A stretch of 64,000 nucleotides of DNA from Candidatus Adlerbacteria bacterium RIFOXYC1_FULL_48_26 (GCA_001773575.1 MEXB01000009.1:7441-71440); one strand, 5' to 3'. Shown: positions 4,440 through 61,575, numbered from the stretch's first letter. Translations and numbers: made by a program. Notes: generated from the letters alone by a model not told the origin.

Positions 4440-4469
4440 TTGACAAGGTGTATTTTATTGTAGTATAAT
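4440..4469 (+). promoter_or_regulatory. Sigma70-like promoter TTGACA-18nt-TATAAT upstream of SPFH cassette
   Basis: Consensus -35 and -10 hexamers at 4440-4445 and 4464-4469; SD-like AAAGGAA ~8 nt before ATG at 4561. Confidence 0.6.
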
Positions 4470-4560: not shown

Positions 4561-6156
4561 ATGGAACGCATTCTCAATTTCTTCCGTGCATTGCTCCGCC
4601 AGTCACGCACTCTGTGGCGGTGGAACAGCCGGAGGAGCACTCGTCGACTTCGGTCCACGATGCACTCGATGAACACGCTGGTGCGGTCAATGAGCACCAT
4701 CGCATCTGTGGCAGTCGCCACGGTTGGATGGGCCATCCTCATTTGGATGATCGCTCTTGCCGCACCTCTTGTAGCGGCAATCGTGGGGGCGTTGGTGACT
4801 GGTTTTACCATTCTCTTCTTCTTGCTCCCCTTCGTCCCCACCGCAATCGGGCTTGGGATTCAAAAGCCTGATCGGTATAGGCCGAAGAACGCTCCCGGTA
4901 TCACAACAACACGTGAGTATCCGCCATCAAAGTTCGGTTTCTTCATCTACCCTCATCCGGGCAGAGTGTTTGTAATCGAACGTGGCGGGCGGTTCGTTCG
5001 CGCCATGATGTCGTATCCGCATCGCATGTTCAGAGGCGAAATACGAAACCCGGATAACGATCCAGATGGACAAAGGTTCCTTCCTAACGAGCCTGAGTAC
5101 TGGGAGATCGTAAAAACGCCTGATGGCGAGCATGACACCCATCCACTGCCGTTCCCCTCCCCGGAGAACAGGCCGTGGTTCTGGATCTTCTACTCTCCCT
5201 TAAGCATCCTGTTTTGGATCTGGAAACGCTTCGTGTTCAAGGTTACCGGCGCTGCCTTCACAGGCATACCGCCGTTCCAAGGACCTCGCGTGTATCCAAT
5301 GGAGAGAAACGAAGAAATTACGTTGGAATCCGGCGAAACGGAGCTTGTACGAGTGGAAGACTACAGCAATCACTACCGGGTTGCGCACTTTCAATACCCG
5401 GTGAAGATTGCGAATGTCGACACTTACGACAAGATTCCCGTCAGGGTAATGCTCAACCTCGTCGCACATGTCTACAATCCGTTCATGACGGCCTACGAGA
5501 CTGACGACGACTGGACAACCCGTTTTAGCAACTTGGCAAAAGATGCTACAACCGGGTTCGCTCGGTCCAGGCCTCTAACCGAGGTCTGGACAGCAGCAAA
5601 GGGAAAAACGCGCGAGCTTGCGAAACGAGTGCGCGCGTTTGGACTTCTCGATACGTACAAGGAAGCGTTGCGCCAGGAGGTGCGCAATGGAACTAGTGAG
5701 GCTGAGCCAGGCGAAACGCCTGACACCGACGCAGAAAATCCTACTCGGAGCCAGAGTTTCACATGCGCCTTTGGCATCGTGATCGACAACGTCAACATTC
5801 TCGACATCTCGCCAATGGATCCGAAAGACACGGAAAAATTGGGAGATGTGGCTCGTGCGCAAGTTCGGATGGAAGCAGCACAACTGGACGCAAAAGGTGC
5901 CGTCGCCATCACCGAAGAAACCGCACGAATCATCAAGGAGAATGAGAATATGCTGCGCGACATTCCTCATGCTGCGCAGATCTTGGGGATGGAAACTAGT
6001 GTCCGTATCGCGCAAGCGGCCGGCACGGAAGGAAATCTTGTGTATATCACCGGTGGCACCAGCCAGGCAAGCGACCCAAACCAAGCGCTCGCCTTGCAAG
6101 AACTTCGGCGTCTCCGGCGGCAGAACAAGAGACTGACAAAAGAAAGCGAGGGATAA
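4561..6156 (+). CDS. Membrane-anchored SPFH/band-7 (stomatin/prohibitin/flotillin-like) domain protein
   Basis: 531 aa; Arg-rich N-terminus, two TM helices, then SPFH-like segments (VFVIERGGRFVRAM ... GIVIDNVNILDISPMDPKDTEKLGDVARAQVRMEAAQLDAKG) and C-terminal coiled-coil; GC visibly higher than neighbours. Confidence 0.55.
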   Translation: MERILNFFRALLRQSRTLWRWNSRRSTRRLRSTMHSMNTLVRSMSTIASVAVATVGWAILIWMIALAAPLVAAIVGALVTGFTILFFLLPFVPTAIGLGIQKPDRYRPKNAPGITTTREYPPSKFGFFIYPHPGRVFVIERGGRFVRAMMSYPHRMFRGEIRNPDNDPDGQRFLPNEPEYWEIVKTPDGEHDTHPLPFPSPENRPWFWIFYSPLSILFWIWKRFVFKVTGAAFTGIPPFQGPRVYPMERNEEITLESGETELVRVEDYSNHYRVAHFQYPVKIANVDTYDKIPVRVMLNLVAHVYNPFMTAYETDDDWTTRFSNLAKDATTGFARSRPLTEVWTAAKGKTRELAKRVRAFGLLDTYKEALRQEVRNGTSEAEPGETPDTDAENPTRSQSFTCAFGIVIDNVNILDISPMDPKDTEKLGDVARAQVRMEAAQLDAKGAVAITEETARIIKENENMLRDIPHAAQILGMETSVRIAQAAGTEGNLVYITGGTSQASDPNQALALQELRRLRRQNKRLTKESEG

Positions 6157-34093: not shown

Positions 34094-34184
34094 TAGGAAA
34101 AACTTTCGATTCCAGGCAATTGACAGGATTAATATGGTCGCTTTATAATTATGAGCGAATACCAAGTCTGAGTCTGCGACTAAA

Positions 34185-34219
34185 TAAAAAACTCCGCTTC
34201 ACGCGGAGTTTTTTATTTT
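34185..34219. terminator. Bidirectional Rho-independent terminator (lepA 3' end)
   Basis: AAAAAACTCCGC-TTCAC-GCGGAGTTTTTTATTTT. Confidence 0.7.
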
Positions 34220-40159: not shown

Positions 40160-40544
40160 TCCACATATCTGCGCGCGCGTATGTAAGCCGAATTCTGTTT
40201 TGCAGAATGTAATTTATCTGGGCCTGTCCTCGCGGACAGGCTCGAGCGGCTCCCAATCCCAACTAATGTTGGGAAGTACGGCCTTGCACCCAAGTAAGGA
40301 TTTTGCCGTTTCACCCGAACTAAATCGGTTCGTCACTGTTCGCACCTCTCTCGCCCGCAAAAAGCGAGTGACAGGGATTACCCACGCAAAGCAAAGTTAC
40401 CCTTGCCGCGTGGCCCCGAGATAAAATCAGAGATTTTATTTTTCGGGGCTGCTACCTTGTTAACCCTACGATTGCTCGAGGGTGGGTGTTCGGACTTTCC
40501 TCCCCTCAACTTTCATTGAGGAGCTACATTCCAACGCGCTGATA
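40160..40544 (-). ncRNA. rnpB: RNase P RNA (bacterial type)
   Basis: Minus-strand reading contains P3 hairpin CCUCAA-UGAAAG-UUGAGG, P4 5' strand GGAGGAAAGUCCGAAC, GGUGAAA / GGUGCAAG motifs and P4 3' strand ACAGAAUUCGGCUUACA; ends approximate. Confidence 0.75.
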
Positions 40545-41012
40545 TTATTGTACCACAATTTTTTGCCCTATGGCAATACCTCGGGCATTTGCATACCCTG
40601 CGGGTACTTCGAGTACGTAACGAACTGGAACATCAGAAGGAAATGTTTGCGGAGGTTGGCGGTCTGTATAACTTTCAGGTGAGGCGTTGCTGACTATCTT
40701 TACGACCGAACCTTCTTCGTCGGCAAAAATCATATCAATAGAAAAATTCATATCTTTCATCCAGAACCCAACCTTACGCGCCGGGTCAAAAATAAACAGC
40801 ATGCCATGGTCGACCTTAAGAGACGTGCGGTCAGATAAACCCTGCTCGCGTTGTTCATCATTTGAGGCAACTTCAACTTGTATAGATGTTTCGCCAATCG
40901 TAATAGTTTTCATAGGTAATCCTGCATTAGGCTGTAACTGCCGATGATTGTATACGTACGCAACCCCTCCAACCAAGAACGACAGAAGAAGTATACCGAC
41001 GGCGTATTTCAT
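40545..41012 (-). CDS. DUF192-family protein (secreted/anchored)
   Basis: Start MKYAVGILLL (signal/anchor); ...DHGMLFIFD...FWMKDMNFSIDMIFADEEGSVV DUF192 pattern; 4-nt overlap with zwf stop. Confidence 0.6.
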   Translation of the reverse strand: MKYAVGILLLSFLVGGVAYVYNHRQLQPNAGLPMKTITIGETSIQVEVASNDEQREQGLSDRTSLKVDHGMLFIFDPARKVGFWMKDMNFSIDMIFADEEGSVVKIVSNASPESYTDRQPPQTFPSDVPVRYVLEVPAGYANARGIAIGQKIVVQ

Positions 41013-42148: not shown

Positions 42149-42733
42149 ATGAATGGAACGAATGCACGCGGCAGACTCGCGCTGGTTGACGGAGTATCAC
42201 TCGAAAGATCCCTCTCGACACATGGGATCAATAAAATAGACGCGGATATGCTCCGTAGATTACTGAAGAGTAAAATACCTGGAGCATACGAATTCTTGCA
42301 GAATCCCGTCATTACCATGCACCCTGAGTTGGCCGACGGAGAACTTGGGAGCGCCTTTGTGCGAAAAGGGTTTGAAGTTCTTGGGAGACACAGTCGCGAC
42401 GAGGCCGACGATTACGCGTTGCGCGAACGTATCGAGAACGCAGACCCGGCCAAGATTGGCCAAATCGTTATGGTCAGCTCCGACGCCGGCTACGCTCGAG
42501 CGCTTTTCGAGAAGTGGAAGCAGGGCGTATCTATCTGCTGGTTCGTCGCGGATAGCTGCGACGAGAAAGATGGCGATACACGAATAGGCCGATTGTTGCG
42601 AAAATTTTTCGCTTGCGGAGCATTTACCTGGGTCAGGATGGAGCCTTTTATTGCGTCTTTGCAATATCCTTCCTCGGCCCTAGAAGGCAAGCGCCATCGG
42701 CAAGGGACTCGCCCACACGCACACAGTATGTAA
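42149..42733 (+). CDS. NYN-domain (LabA/DUF88-like, PIN-related) protein
   Basis: 194 aa; LALVDGVSL start of NYN core and IVMVSSDAGYARAL; lone plus-strand gene among minus-strand genes, GC visibly higher. Confidence 0.5.
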   Translation: MNGTNARGRLALVDGVSLERSLSTHGINKIDADMLRRLLKSKIPGAYEFLQNPVITMHPELADGELGSAFVRKGFEVLGRHSRDEADDYALRERIENADPAKIGQIVMVSSDAGYARALFEKWKQGVSICWFVADSCDEKDGDTRIGRLLRKFFACGAFTWVRMEPFIASLQYPSSALEGKRHRQGTRPHAHSM

Positions 42734-43573: not shown

Positions 43574-43605
43574 TATAAACCCTGCAGACAATATAAAACT
43601 TCGGG

Positions 43606-43690
43606 CGGAGGCGGAGAGATTCGAACTCTCGGTGGGTTGCCCCACACACGCTTTCCAAGCGTGCGCACTAGACCGCTATGCGACGCCTCC
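43606..43690 (-). tRNA. tRNA-Ser (anticodon GGA), long variable arm
   Basis: Minus strand: acceptor GGAGGCG/CGCCTCC, anticodon stem CACGC/GCGTG loop TTGGAAA, long variable arm, T-arm CGAGA-GTTCGAATC-TCTCG. Confidence 0.85.
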
Positions 43691-43786
43691 GTGCTGGAAA
43701 AATATAACACAAATCGTTGATCCCGACTGAAACGTCGGGAAAGAAAATGGCGACCTAAAGAAGGCCGCCATAAAAAAACAGATGAA

Positions 43787-43933
43787 CTAGTTGTCGTTGC
43801 AGGGAATGACGACCTTGGTCTCCGGATCTCTCCAACGTGCAAGACGCTTGTCTCGGATCTCTTTGACCTCCACCGCAATGCGTGGAGAGAGGGCTCTCCG
43901 CGCCCGGATCAGAAATTCTTCTTGCGCTGTCAC
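43787..43933 (-). CDS. Possible small protein (48 aa, GTG start) MTAQEEFLIRARRALSPRIAVEVKEIRDKRLARWRDPETKVVIPCNDN
   Basis: Canonical SD AAGGAGG 8 nt upstream of GTG; not low-complexity unlike overlapping R-rich frames. Confidence 0.3.
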   Translation of the reverse strand: MTAQEEFLIRARRALSPRIAVEVKEIRDKRLARWRDPETKVVIPCNDN

Positions 43934-44050
43934 TACTCACACCTCCTTTTGATTGTCCTCTTTTATATACGCCTCAGGCGCATACAAAGTTTCAGTAGAA
44001 AAGTTTGAGGCGGCTCTCTTTCGAGAAACCGCCTCGGTGAACGTGCGCTG

Positions 44051-44296
44051 CTAGTAAAAGCAGCGTCCGCGCTTGCCCTTGCAGACCGGCGCCCTTTCGA
44101 AGGAGCCGTGCGACGGCGTTTCGGGATAGTCCCGGAACACCGTGGTGTGCGCACTGGCCGCCGGCGCGATCGCGGGCTTGGACGCCTGCATCGACATCTG
44201 CGCCACTTCGACAATCTTGAGGTTGCCGTACATGGCCCGATGAACAGCACGGTCGGCGAGCGTCGGGTCAACAGTATTCAGAACCAAAGTGCCCAT
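44051..44296 (-). CDS. GC3-rich mini-gene P2 (81 aa)
   Basis: SD GGGGAG 7 nt before ATG; perfect consensus promoter upstream; hairpin GAGGCGG...CCGCCTC + T-rich tail after stop; GC-rich codons. Confidence 0.5.
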   Translation of the reverse strand: MGTLVLNTVDPTLADRAVHRAMYGNLKIVEVAQMSMQASKPAIAPAASAHTTVFRDYPETPSHGSFERAPVCKGKRGRCFY

Positions 44297-44347
44297 TGAG
44301 ATTCTCCCCTAGTCAAAGTCCTTCATGCACTGTGCATGATTAGATAT

Positions 44348-44376
44348 ATTATATATCAGGAAACTGTTCCTGTCAA
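44348..44376 (-). promoter_or_regulatory. Perfect consensus sigma70 promoter TTGACA-17-TATAAT (minus strand) with 8-bp inverted repeat ACTGTTCC/GGAACAGT flanking the -35
   Basis: Read on minus strand: cTTGACAggaacagtttcctgataTATAATat; inverted repeat ACTGTTCC-TGTCAA-GGAACAGT spans the -35 hexamer. Confidence 0.7.
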
Positions 44377-44395
44377 GGAACAGTAGGAGTTCCTA

Positions 44396-46420: not shown

Positions 46421-46460
46421 AGTGAAAATACTTTACTTGAAATGAGGTTGCGGGGCAAAT

Positions 46461-55377: not shown

Positions 55378-55641
55378 TTACAGGTGGGCGGCCAGCGGGT
55401 TGCCGCTGTCGCGCAGGAACCCCATCCCGAACTTCGAGACCGGGTGGACATTCCCGCCACGCGTCTGGCAGAGAGCGCCGTCCTGGACGACGAGGTCGCC
55501 CGCGTCCGGCCGGACGCAACCGTAGTCCTTGGCCGAGACCACGACCACAGCATCGGATTTGACGCTACCCTGCTGCTCCGGCGTGAAGACACAGGACGTG
55601 CAGCAGGGCGGACAGCCGCCACACGGGGGCTTCTTGGACAT
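55378..55641 (-). CDS. GC3-rich mini-gene P4 (87 aa) with Cys-rich N-terminus MSKKPPCGGCPPCCTSC
   Basis: SD AGGAG (inside palindrome CCTTCGAAGG) 8 nt before ATG; strong terminator after stop; GC-rich islet flanked by AT-rich DNA. Confidence 0.5.
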   Translation of the reverse strand: MSKKPPCGGCPPCCTSCVFTPEQQGSVKSDAVVVVSAKDYGCVRPDAGDLVVQDGALCQTRGGNVHPVSKFGMGFLRDSGNPLAAHL

Positions 55642-59235: not shown

Positions 59236-59913
59236 CTACATTAATTCTTCGTCTAGGGGAACCACTTCTGTCATTTGCATCTGCGGCGCTGGGATAATAC
59301 AGAGCACTTTCCCTGCGATTTTAAAATCTTCTTTCAAGATAATTGGTTTGAATTTAGGATCTTTTGATTCTGGCCAGAGAATGACCATACCGTCGCGTTT
59401 CTCCAGACGTTTAACCGTAACCATGTCGTTTACTATCGCCGCGACGCGGTCGCCATTTTGCACATCATCAGTAAAACGGATAAGAACATAGTCGCCAGTG
59501 TTAATACCTGCGTCGTTCATACTGTCGCCGATAGCGCGCACGGCAACAATGTCTCCATCCTCTTCATCAACGATACGTTTGTCTACTTCTAGAAATTCAT
59601 CTGCTCCTTGAGTGTTCTGCGCAAAGACACTGAGGTCGTCGCACCCAACATTGGCAATGACGGGGATGCTTACTGTCCCCCACGCACCATCAACATTGCG
59701 TAGCTCTATATTGCGAGAAGCATTTTTGCGGCGAACGATGTAGCCCTTTCTCTCTAAGATGTCTAAATATTGAGTAACGGTGCGAAGCGAGTTAAAACCG
59801 AGCGCTGAACGTAGCTGTTCCAGCGTTGGAGACTGGTTTTGCGTGTACATGTAGTCCCTGAGAGTGCTAAGTACGCGCTGCTGCTTAAATGTTAGGAGGT
59901 TTTGTATTTGCAT
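59236..59913 (-). CDS. lexA: LexA repressor (S24 peptidase with N-terminal wHTH)
   Basis: 225 aa; Ala-Gly cleavage region VIANVGCDD..., catalytic Ser GDSMNDAGINTGD and Lys VKRL. Confidence 0.85.
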   Translation of the reverse strand: MQIQNLLTFKQQRVLSTLRDYMYTQNQSPTLEQLRSALGFNSLRTVTQYLDILERKGYIVRRKNASRNIELRNVDGAWGTVSIPVIANVGCDDLSVFAQNTQGADEFLEVDKRIVDEEDGDIVAVRAIGDSMNDAGINTGDYVLIRFTDDVQNGDRVAAIVNDMVTVKRLEKRDGMVILWPESKDPKFKPIILKEDFKIAGKVLCIIPAPQMQMTEVVPLDEELM

Positions 59914-59980
59914 ACACCAATACTAACACTAATTACTGCGTGCAATACACAAGATACACTAATGTGTGGATATCTTCGCG

Positions 59981-60310
59981 CTAGCTTTCGTGATGATGAG
60001 CGTGTTTGTGATGCTGTGGGCCCTTGGTAAAAAGCTGGTCGAAGCGCAACTTTGCGAAACCAAACAAGTACACGATCTCCAAAATACCTAGGGTGTTAAT
60101 GAGGAGTATGGCGAGAAACCACCATGGCTGGCCATTGCGTGAGGCGTGCCATAGAGCCAAACCCTTCCATACCATTGACCAAAGCACCGCAATAAAGACC
60201 AGCCCACCAACTGCACCTACAGCGAGCGGAGCGTTAATAAACCAAGCCTGATTCATGCCCCAATCATGCGTATACATATATCGTAAGTATACAACGCTCT
60301 TATCCGTCAA
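59981..60310 (-). CDS. DUF5652-family small membrane protein
   Basis: ...VWKGLALWHASRNGQPWWF... characteristic; real start may be MNQAWF (60256). Confidence 0.5.
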   Translation of the reverse strand: MTDKSVVYLRYMYTHDWGMNQAWFINAPLAVGAVGGLVFIAVLWSMVWKGLALWHASRNGQPWWFLAILLINTLGILEIVYLFGFAKLRFDQLFTKGPQHHKHAHHHES

Positions 60311-61395: not shown

Positions 61396-61575
61396 CTAGC
61401 CGAGCGTGGGATGGAAGCTGAGTTCGTTGCTCGGGTCGGTGCCACGCTCCTGCGCGCCACCGCTGCTGCTCGCCGAATGTGCGCCGGTGCCGCCGAGATG
61501 AGCCTGGACCTCAGCCGTCGTCATCACCGTCGCACCTTCACCCAAACGGGCCGTGAGGGCCGATTGCATATTCAT
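61396..61575 (-). CDS. GC3-rich mini-gene P3 (59 aa, Gly/Ser/Ala-rich, ends ...HPTLG)
   Basis: SD GGAGG 6 nt before ATG (MNMQ...); 80 nt downstream of E1-like gene with no terminator between; strong terminator after stop. Confidence 0.5.
   Translation of the reverse strand: MNMQSALTARLGEGATVMTTAEVQAHLGGTGAHSASSSGGAQERGTDPSNELSFHPTLG

Follow-up and report, generated by a model that had tools for sequence, protein, structure and literature searches.

A probable small-protein gene between groEL and tRNA-Ser in a Candidatus Adlerbacteria genome, with a promoter that may share its DNA with a 3' hairpin of the groESL transcript

The arrangement discussed below recalls several described systems. 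Stem-loops at the very 5' end stabilise certain bacterial mRNAs, such as those carrying the Escherichia coli ompA leader and the Bacillus subtilis 5' stabilisers. Operators of the LexA/Cheo type have the form GAAC-N4-GTTC. Intrinsic terminators place a stable stem-loop directly after a stop codon, and orphan islets next to tRNA genes are short, family-less and of foreign composition. The locus in question lies in a stretch of 64,000 nucleotides (nt), referred to as the window, from Candidatus Adlerbacteria bacterium RIFOXYC1_FULL_48_26 (GCA_001773575.1, MEXB01000009.1:7441-71440), a member of the Parcubacteria within the Candidate Phyla Radiation (CPR). Between groEL and a tRNA-Ser(GGA) gene the minus strand carries an open reading frame (ORF) of 81 amino acids (aa), here called P2, and a 48-aa ORF with a GTG start. 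The -35 hexamer of the P2 promoter is embraced by a perfect inverted repeat, which an earlier note on this DNA had interpreted as an operator.

The explanation that we favour, with moderate confidence, combines a small-protein gene with a 3' hairpin of the groESL transcript that shares DNA with the promoter of that gene. P2 would be a stand-alone, strongly expressed gene, present only in a narrow Adlerbacteria clade, in the variable gap that separates groEL from tRNA-Ser(GGA). Its transcription would start at a perfect sigma-70-type promoter, and a conserved stem-loop at the 5' terminus would probably shield the mRNA from decay. A strong ribosome-binding site would direct synthesis of a basic protein of 81-89 aa, and a strong, strictly conserved terminator would end the message. 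The inverted repeat would not serve P2 as an operator; transcribed at the extreme 3' end of the groESL message, it would fold into a hairpin that either terminates transcription intrinsically or stabilises the 3' end. The 48-aa ORF would be a separate, dispensable small cassette beside the tRNA gene.

P2 is very probably a real protein gene restricted to one clade. An exhaustive HMMER search of 1.84 billion representative proteins found a sole homologue, P0003 (89 aa, 54-59% identical, E = 2e-10), and a word-indexed search of 5.8 billion proteins, run with the single sequence and with a profile, returned only P2 itself and P0003. The gene for P0003 is located on two Logan contigs, L006 and L007, of a sister lineage whose groEL is 92.5% identical to that of the window in protein and 80% in DNA. 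The gene order on these contigs (SBP, secG, groES, groEL, small ORF, start of tRNA-Ser) is the same as around P2. When the two genes are aligned, their start codons, stop codons and Shine-Dalgarno (SD) sequences coincide, and the three indels of 3, 18 and 3 nt are all in frame. Eight contigs with exact P2 are identical in DNA and show no variation. A tblastn search with P2 and P0003 as queries, covering 80 groEL loci from related Parcubacteria, detected no further homologue, and no match was obtained by scanning genome and metagenome contigs with the protein profile and the conserved hairpin. Viral contigs contained nothing, nor did plasmids and phages (tblastn).

The coding signature is read directly from the base composition. 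The GC contents of the three codon positions of P2 are 0.585/0.50/0.79 (periodicity chi-square p = 3.6e-4), and those of P0003, in the same frame, are 0.556/0.578/0.789 (p = 1.5e-3), compared with 0.57/0.41/0.47 in the long ORFs of the genome. The GC content of the third position (GC3) is 0.79 in both P2 genes even though their host genomes differ (0.47 versus about 0.62). The Arg-rich frames of 102 and 63 aa that overlap P2 are out of phase with this periodicity and can be dismissed as artefacts, as had been supposed. The protein is basic, with an isoelectric point of 9.4 in the window and 10.7 in the sister lineage, and is largely disordered. Its conserved N-terminus, TLVLxTxD...RAV...YG..KxVxVAxM, is predicted with low confidence to form a beta-alpha-beta arrangement. 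The motif KPAIAPAxSAH and a basic tail, RAPVxKGKR, are also conserved; the two cysteines close to the C-terminus lack such conservation between the lineages. Binding to nucleic acid or to the ribosome would be our guess as to what such a protein does.

The sister lineage is the only relative with the gene, and it keeps the signals that surround P2, in agreement with the description of P2 as a genuine mini-gene with its own promoter. The promoter matches the consensus at 12/12 positions with a 17-nt spacer, and its hexamers and spacing are identical in L006 and L007. Three 12/12 promoters occur in the window, compared with about 0.02 expected in 64 kb on both strands. The GGGGAG sequence, the hairpin after the P2 stop codon and its T-rich tail are likewise in place. 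The hairpin (-21.3 kcal/mol, z = -3.8) is followed by AAACTTTTCTAC, and 29/29 of its nucleotides are identical in L006 and L007, though the groEL DNA of the two lineages is much less similar.

The leader of P2 can be compared to the 5' stabilisers. Its palindrome begins about 1-3 nt after the transcription start, as predicted from the -10 hexamer only, and folds into a stem of about -7.6 to -9 kcal/mol. In L006, 22/26 leader positions are identical, the palindrome takes the form TCATGCA-n-(T/C)GCATGA and the box that follows it is kept. No other copy of the palindrome was found in the window. With the ompA leader and its B. subtilis counterparts it has in common a hairpin of 6-7 bp near the predicted start that is kept between lineages, and we propose that the P2 leader forms a 5'-terminal stabilising stem-loop of the mRNA. 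Unlike in those systems, the start of the transcript is predicted from sequence, and the DNA of the palindrome might just as well bind a repressor. As it is conserved in sequence, the leader palindrome would in fact be a better candidate for an operator than the repeat around the -35 hexamer.

That repeat was correctly described as a perfect 8-bp inverted repeat, and it is statistically unusual: the exact 22-nt palindrome was seen in 0/100 shuffles, and simulation gave p of about 0.001 for a fixed hexamer enclosed within 16 nt by perfect repeat arms of >=8 bp. It belongs to a larger, nested hairpin of 14 bp (9 + 5) that starts 2 nt after the groEL stop codon. The outer stem is AGGAA/UUCCU; the inner stem of 9 bp is ACUGUUCCU/AGGAACAGU, with arms at 44376-44384 and 44363-44371. 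The additional GGAAC/GTTCC half-sites reported upstream are present, but they would not be separate regulator sites: in the fold, one pairs with the other to make up the outer stem of this single hairpin. The element as first delimited ended at 44376. Its component parts stand, but this end bisects the palindrome, and the whole hairpin runs to 44394. The -35 hexamer occupies the loop and the 3' arm, so that the terminator of the upstream unit and the promoter of P2 would share the same 40 bp. Because transcripts of P2 are predicted to start downstream of the repeat, only groEL RNA would contain it.

In L006 a different 7-bp repeat, AACCTGA/TCAGGTT, flanks the -35 hexamer (p about 0.005). Its arms are unrelated to ACTGTTCC, and it forms a hairpin of 7 + 3 bp (-10 kcal/mol) at the same place, followed by UUUUCU. 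The hairpins of the window and of L006 both begin within 1-2 nt of the groEL stop codon. Structure is thus kept in these two lineages while sequence drifts, the arms being unlike and both repeats improbable by chance. Canonical terminators stand right after groEL in the relatives L008 and L010. In a crude scan of the 80 groEL loci of related Parcubacteria, 25 had a hairpin with a U-rich tail <=110 nt from the stop codon, and strong hairpins were present in many more. Like an intrinsic terminator, the repeat forms a stable stem-loop (-16 to -18 kcal/mol), here placed just past the stop codon of an operon with high expression; an A/U-rich stretch follows, and relatives have canonical terminators at the same place. 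It differs from a typical one in its poor U-tract and in the -35 hexamer of the next promoter lying inside its loop, and termination is predicted. The simplest reading of the repeat is a groESL terminator or 3'-end hairpin that overlaps the P2 promoter, rather than an operator.

The operator interpretation holds that a dimeric repressor, for which the window offers a LexA and an HxlR-type protein, binds the palindrome and the GGAAC/GTTCC half-sites over the -35 hexamer and shuts P2 off. The perfection of the repeat and its overlap with the -35 hexamer, the classical place for a repressor, speak in its favour, as does the occurrence of GAAC/GTTC, which we take to resemble the half-sites of Gram-positive LexA boxes; like Cheo boxes, the repeat consists of palindromic half-sites overlapping a promoter, and the window contains a lexA gene. 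However, the half-sites are spaced by N8 and N7 rather than by N4, and the palindrome together with all its half-sites is missing at the orthologous promoter of L006 and L007, where the hexamers and their spacing are unchanged. A search for the palindrome elsewhere, which the earlier note had proposed as a way to define a regulon, gave no second copy at <=3 mismatches in the 64 kb, and half-site pairs with spacings of 3 to 9 occur there at chance frequency. Neither a GGAAC motif nor a GAAC/GTTC pair is found upstream of lexA (59236-59913). One nested RNA hairpin accounts for every half-site, and an operator at this position seems unlikely to us. It is also improbable, to a slightly greater degree, that the P2 transcript is mainly a structured non-coding or dual-function RNA in which the 81-codon ORF is incidental to high GC. 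The islet has a GC content of 0.62-0.67 over 44000-44300, with the peak over the P2 ORF, compared with a window mean of 0.48, in a genome of 48% GC. The minimum free energy of the transcript is -146 kcal/mol (z = -2.98 versus shuffles), conservation is higher in its leader and terminator than in the body of the ORF, and the proportion of synonymous differences (pS) is 0.54 in P2 versus 0.69 in groEL, whose synonymous sites are near saturation. RNAalifold also proposes 11 double-sided changes, which with two sequences are no evidence. Such an RNA is hard to reconcile with the three-base GC periodicity in the same frame in both lineages, with the in-frame indels, with the kept ATG, stop codon and SD sequence, or with the protein match to P0003; the islet has no Rfam match at the gathering score, and at E <= 10 it gives only a chance, terminator-like one.

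A further explanation is that P2 is a functionless piece of foreign, high-GC DNA recently captured in a recombination-prone gap by a tRNA gene. Its GC3 is indeed foreign to the genome and P2 is an orphan; the same gap holds a helix-turn-helix (HTH) gene of alphaproteobacterial appearance in L008 and is empty in L010. A recent and functionless capture would not be expected to retain its promoter, 5' hairpin, SD sequence and complete terminator over a distance at which groEL pS approaches saturation, nor an ORF that is open in both lineages. No homologue in a possible donor was found among the representative proteins, plasmids, phages and viral contigs searched, and we give this explanation as little weight as that of a structured RNA. 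Finally, P2 and the 48-aa ORF are adjacent small genes on the same strand and both encode basic proteins, as might be expected of a toxin-antitoxin or similar paired module. Each gene, however, has its own terminator, neither PADLOC, Pfam nor NCBIfam gave a match, and the two are distributed independently: P2 occurs without the 48-aa ORF in L006, and a homologue of the 48-aa ORF occurs without P2 in L008. The paired module was rejected on these grounds and is scarcely credible.

Several observations weigh against the combination of a small-protein gene and a groESL 3' hairpin, which we nevertheless prefer. The ratio of non-synonymous to synonymous substitution rates (dN/dS) between P2 and P0003 is about 0.41 and the substitutions are distributed 30/21/37 over the three codon positions, which corresponds to weak purifying selection, and the superior conservation of the leader and terminator would also fit a role at the RNA level. 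The AlphaFold model of P2, built from a two-sequence alignment, is poor, with a predicted local distance difference test score (pLDDT) of 53. The protein has no match in Pfam, NCBIfam, PHROGs, PADLOC or PDB, the literature searches yielded nothing on this locus in particular, and no family, structure or literature link points to a function. As for the hairpin, its U-tract in the window is poor, with 3-4 U in the 8 nt after the stem (tail UUCCUGAU, or AUAUAUAA past the outer stem), and a consensus terminator scan did not call it. Its conservation rests on n = 2 lineages, between which the arms are out of strict register and the loop measures 4-6 nt (window) versus 5-13 nt (L006). We conclude from the sequence comparison that P2 appears to encode a fast-evolving protein under weak purifying selection.

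The features of the locus are collected in Table 1 together with other GC3-rich small ORFs of the window. On re-reading the coordinates, all the sequence features listed in the earlier note were found on the minus strand in their places.

Table 1. Features of the groEL/tRNA-Ser locus and GC3-rich small ORFs elsewhere in the window (positions counted from the first nucleotide of the window)
Feature	Position	Strand	Details
groEL, 548 aa, gene upstream of P2	44396..46042	-	ORF; Cpn60_TCP1 Pfam call on identical gene
groEL stop codon TAA	44396-44398	-	
Extended RNA hairpin, groEL 3' region	44358..44394	-	fold -18.4 kcal/mol, z = -2.55; exact repeat
Palindrome ACTGTTCC-TTGACA-GGAACAGT	44363-44384	-	9-bp arms if loop-edge bases are counted
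P2 promoter TTGACA-17-TATAAT	44348..44376	-	-35 at 44371-44376, -10 at 44348-44353; 12/12 match; hexamers and spacing same in L006/L007
Conserved 5' leader	44313..44339	-	palindrome TCATGCA-CAG-TGCATGA 44323-44339, then box GGACTTTGA 44313-44321
P2 Shine-Dalgarno sequence GGGGAG	44304..44309	-	7 nt before ATG at 44296; AGGGAG at same position in L006
P2 coding sequence, 81 aa	44051..44296	-	NCBI: hypothetical protein A2419_00625
P2 terminator	43995..44035	-	hairpin GAGGCGGUUUCUCGAAAGAGAGCCGCCUC 44007-44035, then tail AAACUUUUCUAC
GAAAC-N17-CGTATA motif, possible promoter, 5' of 48-aa ORF	43966..43993	-	same motif and spacing in L008
48-aa GTG-start ORF (43787-43933) with SD AAGGAGG (43942-43948)	43787..43948	-	SD 8 nt before GTG at 43933
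Intrinsic terminator of 48-aa unit	43747..43771	-	10 pairs, T-run; -16.9 kcal/mol, z = -5.0
tRNA-Ser(GGA), conserved downstream edge of variable gap	43603..43691	-	follows groEL in L006, L008, L009 and L010 at varying distance
Mini-gene, 57 aa	16396-16569	+	GC3 0.91
Mini-gene, 87 aa, Cys-rich	55378-55641	-	GC3 0.86; starts with CGGCPPCCTSC cluster
Mini-gene, 59 aa	61396-61575	-	GC3 0.75
Mini-gene, 90 aa	11423-11695	+	GC3 0.74
Small ORF, 28 aa	16121-16207	+	GC3 0.66

The gap from the groEL stop codon to tRNA-Ser(GGA) differs between lineages in both length and content. It measures 96 nt and has no cargo in L010, about 450 nt with P2 only in L006, and 705 nt with P2 and the 48-aa ORF in the window. 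In L009 it measures 721 nt and contains, on the opposite strand, an NYN-like gene homologous to window positions 42149-42733; in L008, a contig of a metagenome-assembled genome (JARIGK010000004.1), it measures 929 nt and holds a 151-aa HTH_3 regulator and a 59-aa ORF. The L008 regulator (XRE-type; 4782-5243) has a GC3 of 0.79 in a locus of 52% GC. It is 62% identical to Azospirillum proteins, and almost all of its 774 plasmid matches are alphaproteobacterial. By sequence, it looks like an alphaproteobacterial gene that was transferred into an Adlerbacteria genome. Because of this regulator and of the variable length and content, the gap can be described as a plastic site that foreign DNA of high GC content has entered on at least one occasion.

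With the orphan islets found by tRNA genes, P2 has in common that it is short, family-less and of foreign composition and lies in a variable gap bounded by a tRNA gene. It differs from them in that there are no direct repeats flanking the cassette, no integrase gene among the called neighbours (no search was aimed at integrases) and a cargo that lies 5' of the tRNA gene, and in that the promoter and leader of P2 are AT-rich and native-looking. An integron cassette or integrase island was considered and rejected, there being neither an attC-like site by eye nor flanking direct repeats. The counterpart of the L009 gene in the window is a 194-aa NYN/LabA-like ORF (plus strand) without a Pfam match; its homologue at 4708-5235 of L009 lies between groEL and tRNA-Ser, and between the lineages the gene has changed its position with respect to groEL.

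The 48-aa ORF has good translation signals, as had been pointed out (AAGGAGG at 8-nt spacing), but it is absent from the sister lineage and has one weak positional homologue. In L006 the tRNA-Ser gene follows the P2 terminator after ~40 nt. The 48-aa protein was an orphan in the protein database search, and in one assembly (L002) the ORF carries a JGI gene call. The 59-aa ORF of L008 likewise lies immediately upstream of tRNA-Ser and shares LIxARR...SP...RDxRxAxWR with the 48-aa protein. The score of their local alignment is 52, versus 25.5 +/- 5.2 for shuffles (p = 0.0004). In BLASTP the pair gives E = 0.13, and their tblastn matches are weak, yet each falls on the position of the other. Both ORFs are preceded by GAAAC-N17-CGTATATA, a motif with no other exact occurrence in the window. 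The GAAAC-N17-CGTATA arrangement resembles promoters of extracytoplasmic function (ECF) sigma factors, and it may be taken as a lead to a possible promoter of this type; no ECF sigma factor was found among the ten ORFs of the window that were scanned. The 48-aa ORF is plausible as a gene, with more uncertainty and thinner support than P2. Two of its segments, of 11 and 13 nt (43823-43833 against 43613-43623 and 43894-43906 against 43606-43618), are 85-91% complementary to the 3' part of tRNA-Ser, which is probably due to chance.

Other observations were made in the vicinity and elsewhere in the window. The starts of groES and secG, on opposite strands, are 40 bp apart (46421-46460), and no CIRCE element was found anywhere in the 64 kb. 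The groESL promoter must thus lie inside secG, and HrcA/CIRCE control seems to be absent; such control reaching P2 was rejected for the same lack of a CIRCE element. In the lexA leader (59914-59990, minus strand) an ACAC-ATTA-GTGT sequence and repeated TAGTGT motifs, unrelated to the GGAAC palindrome, are candidates for the LexA boxes of this organism. The second of the 12/12 promoters (TTGACA-18-TATAAT; 34120-34215, plus strand) precedes a unit of ~60 nt, a candidate small RNA, which is closed by a strong terminator (ACTCCGCttcacGCGGAGT with a run of T). Immediately behind the -10 hexamer of this promoter stands the 9-mer GAATACCAA, which the third one, at 4440 (plus strand), has as well. Known non-coding RNAs (RNase P, tmRNA, 6S, SRP) were considered as the source of the GC islet and rejected, as neither Rfam nor ARAGORN gave a match in the region. 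A bacterial class A RNase P RNA is located at 40168-40542 of the window (minus strand; 91.7 bits, E = 1e-28). The Rfam gathering score of this family is 100, and the default scan missed it. A promoter-like TTGCCA-18-TACAAT precedes this RNA at 40576.

P2 is accompanied in the window by further small ORFs in GC-rich islets (Table 1), each with its own promoter-like site, a strong SD sequence and a terminator, in a genome with a GC3 of 0.47. These mini-genes have no sequence in common, and the 57-, 87-, 59- and 90-aa ORFs had no Pfam, PHROGs or plasmid matches among the searches run on them. It is possible, though we hold it only tentatively and rather doubt it, that P2 is one of at least five foreign-looking mini-genes with a GC3 of 0.74-0.91 in the 64 kb, captured repeatedly at plastic intergenic sites, with high-GC neighbours or hosts as donors, and placed under native high-output signals. 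The HTH gene in the corresponding gap of L008 would be another case of capture, and such genes might be effectors or factors that bind nucleic acid or the ribosome. Compared with a contig of another genome (L088, positions 1-470; GCA_019749995.1), the region of the 59-aa cassette is 95-100% identical from 61869 to about 61420, and ~75% identical thereafter. The identity drops at 61419, just past the stop codon of the 59-aa ORF at the start of the terminator region, and the two terminators differ in stem sequence. The notion of an ultra-conserved cassette was discarded, as the cassette is part of a larger block of 95-100% identity with a breakpoint at 61419, which indicates recombination or transfer rather than constraint on the cassette itself.

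The locus is thus of an ordinary kind, an orphan small-protein gene with an overlap between a terminator and a promoter, and its modestly interesting aspect is the presence of foreign-looking, GC3-rich mini-genes in a CPR genome. What had been called an operator is replaced by a more mundane and better-fitting reading, in which a terminator and a promoter would occupy the same DNA. Judging from its sequence, an ORF annotated as hypothetical in such a genome very probably codes for a genuine small protein that is strongly expressed and evolves fast. If the pattern of GC3-rich mini-genes proves true, it would be relevant to the way in which reduced, episymbiotic bacteria take up small foreign genes and make them their own, and the mini-genes might hint at the GC-rich organisms with which such bacteria exchange DNA.

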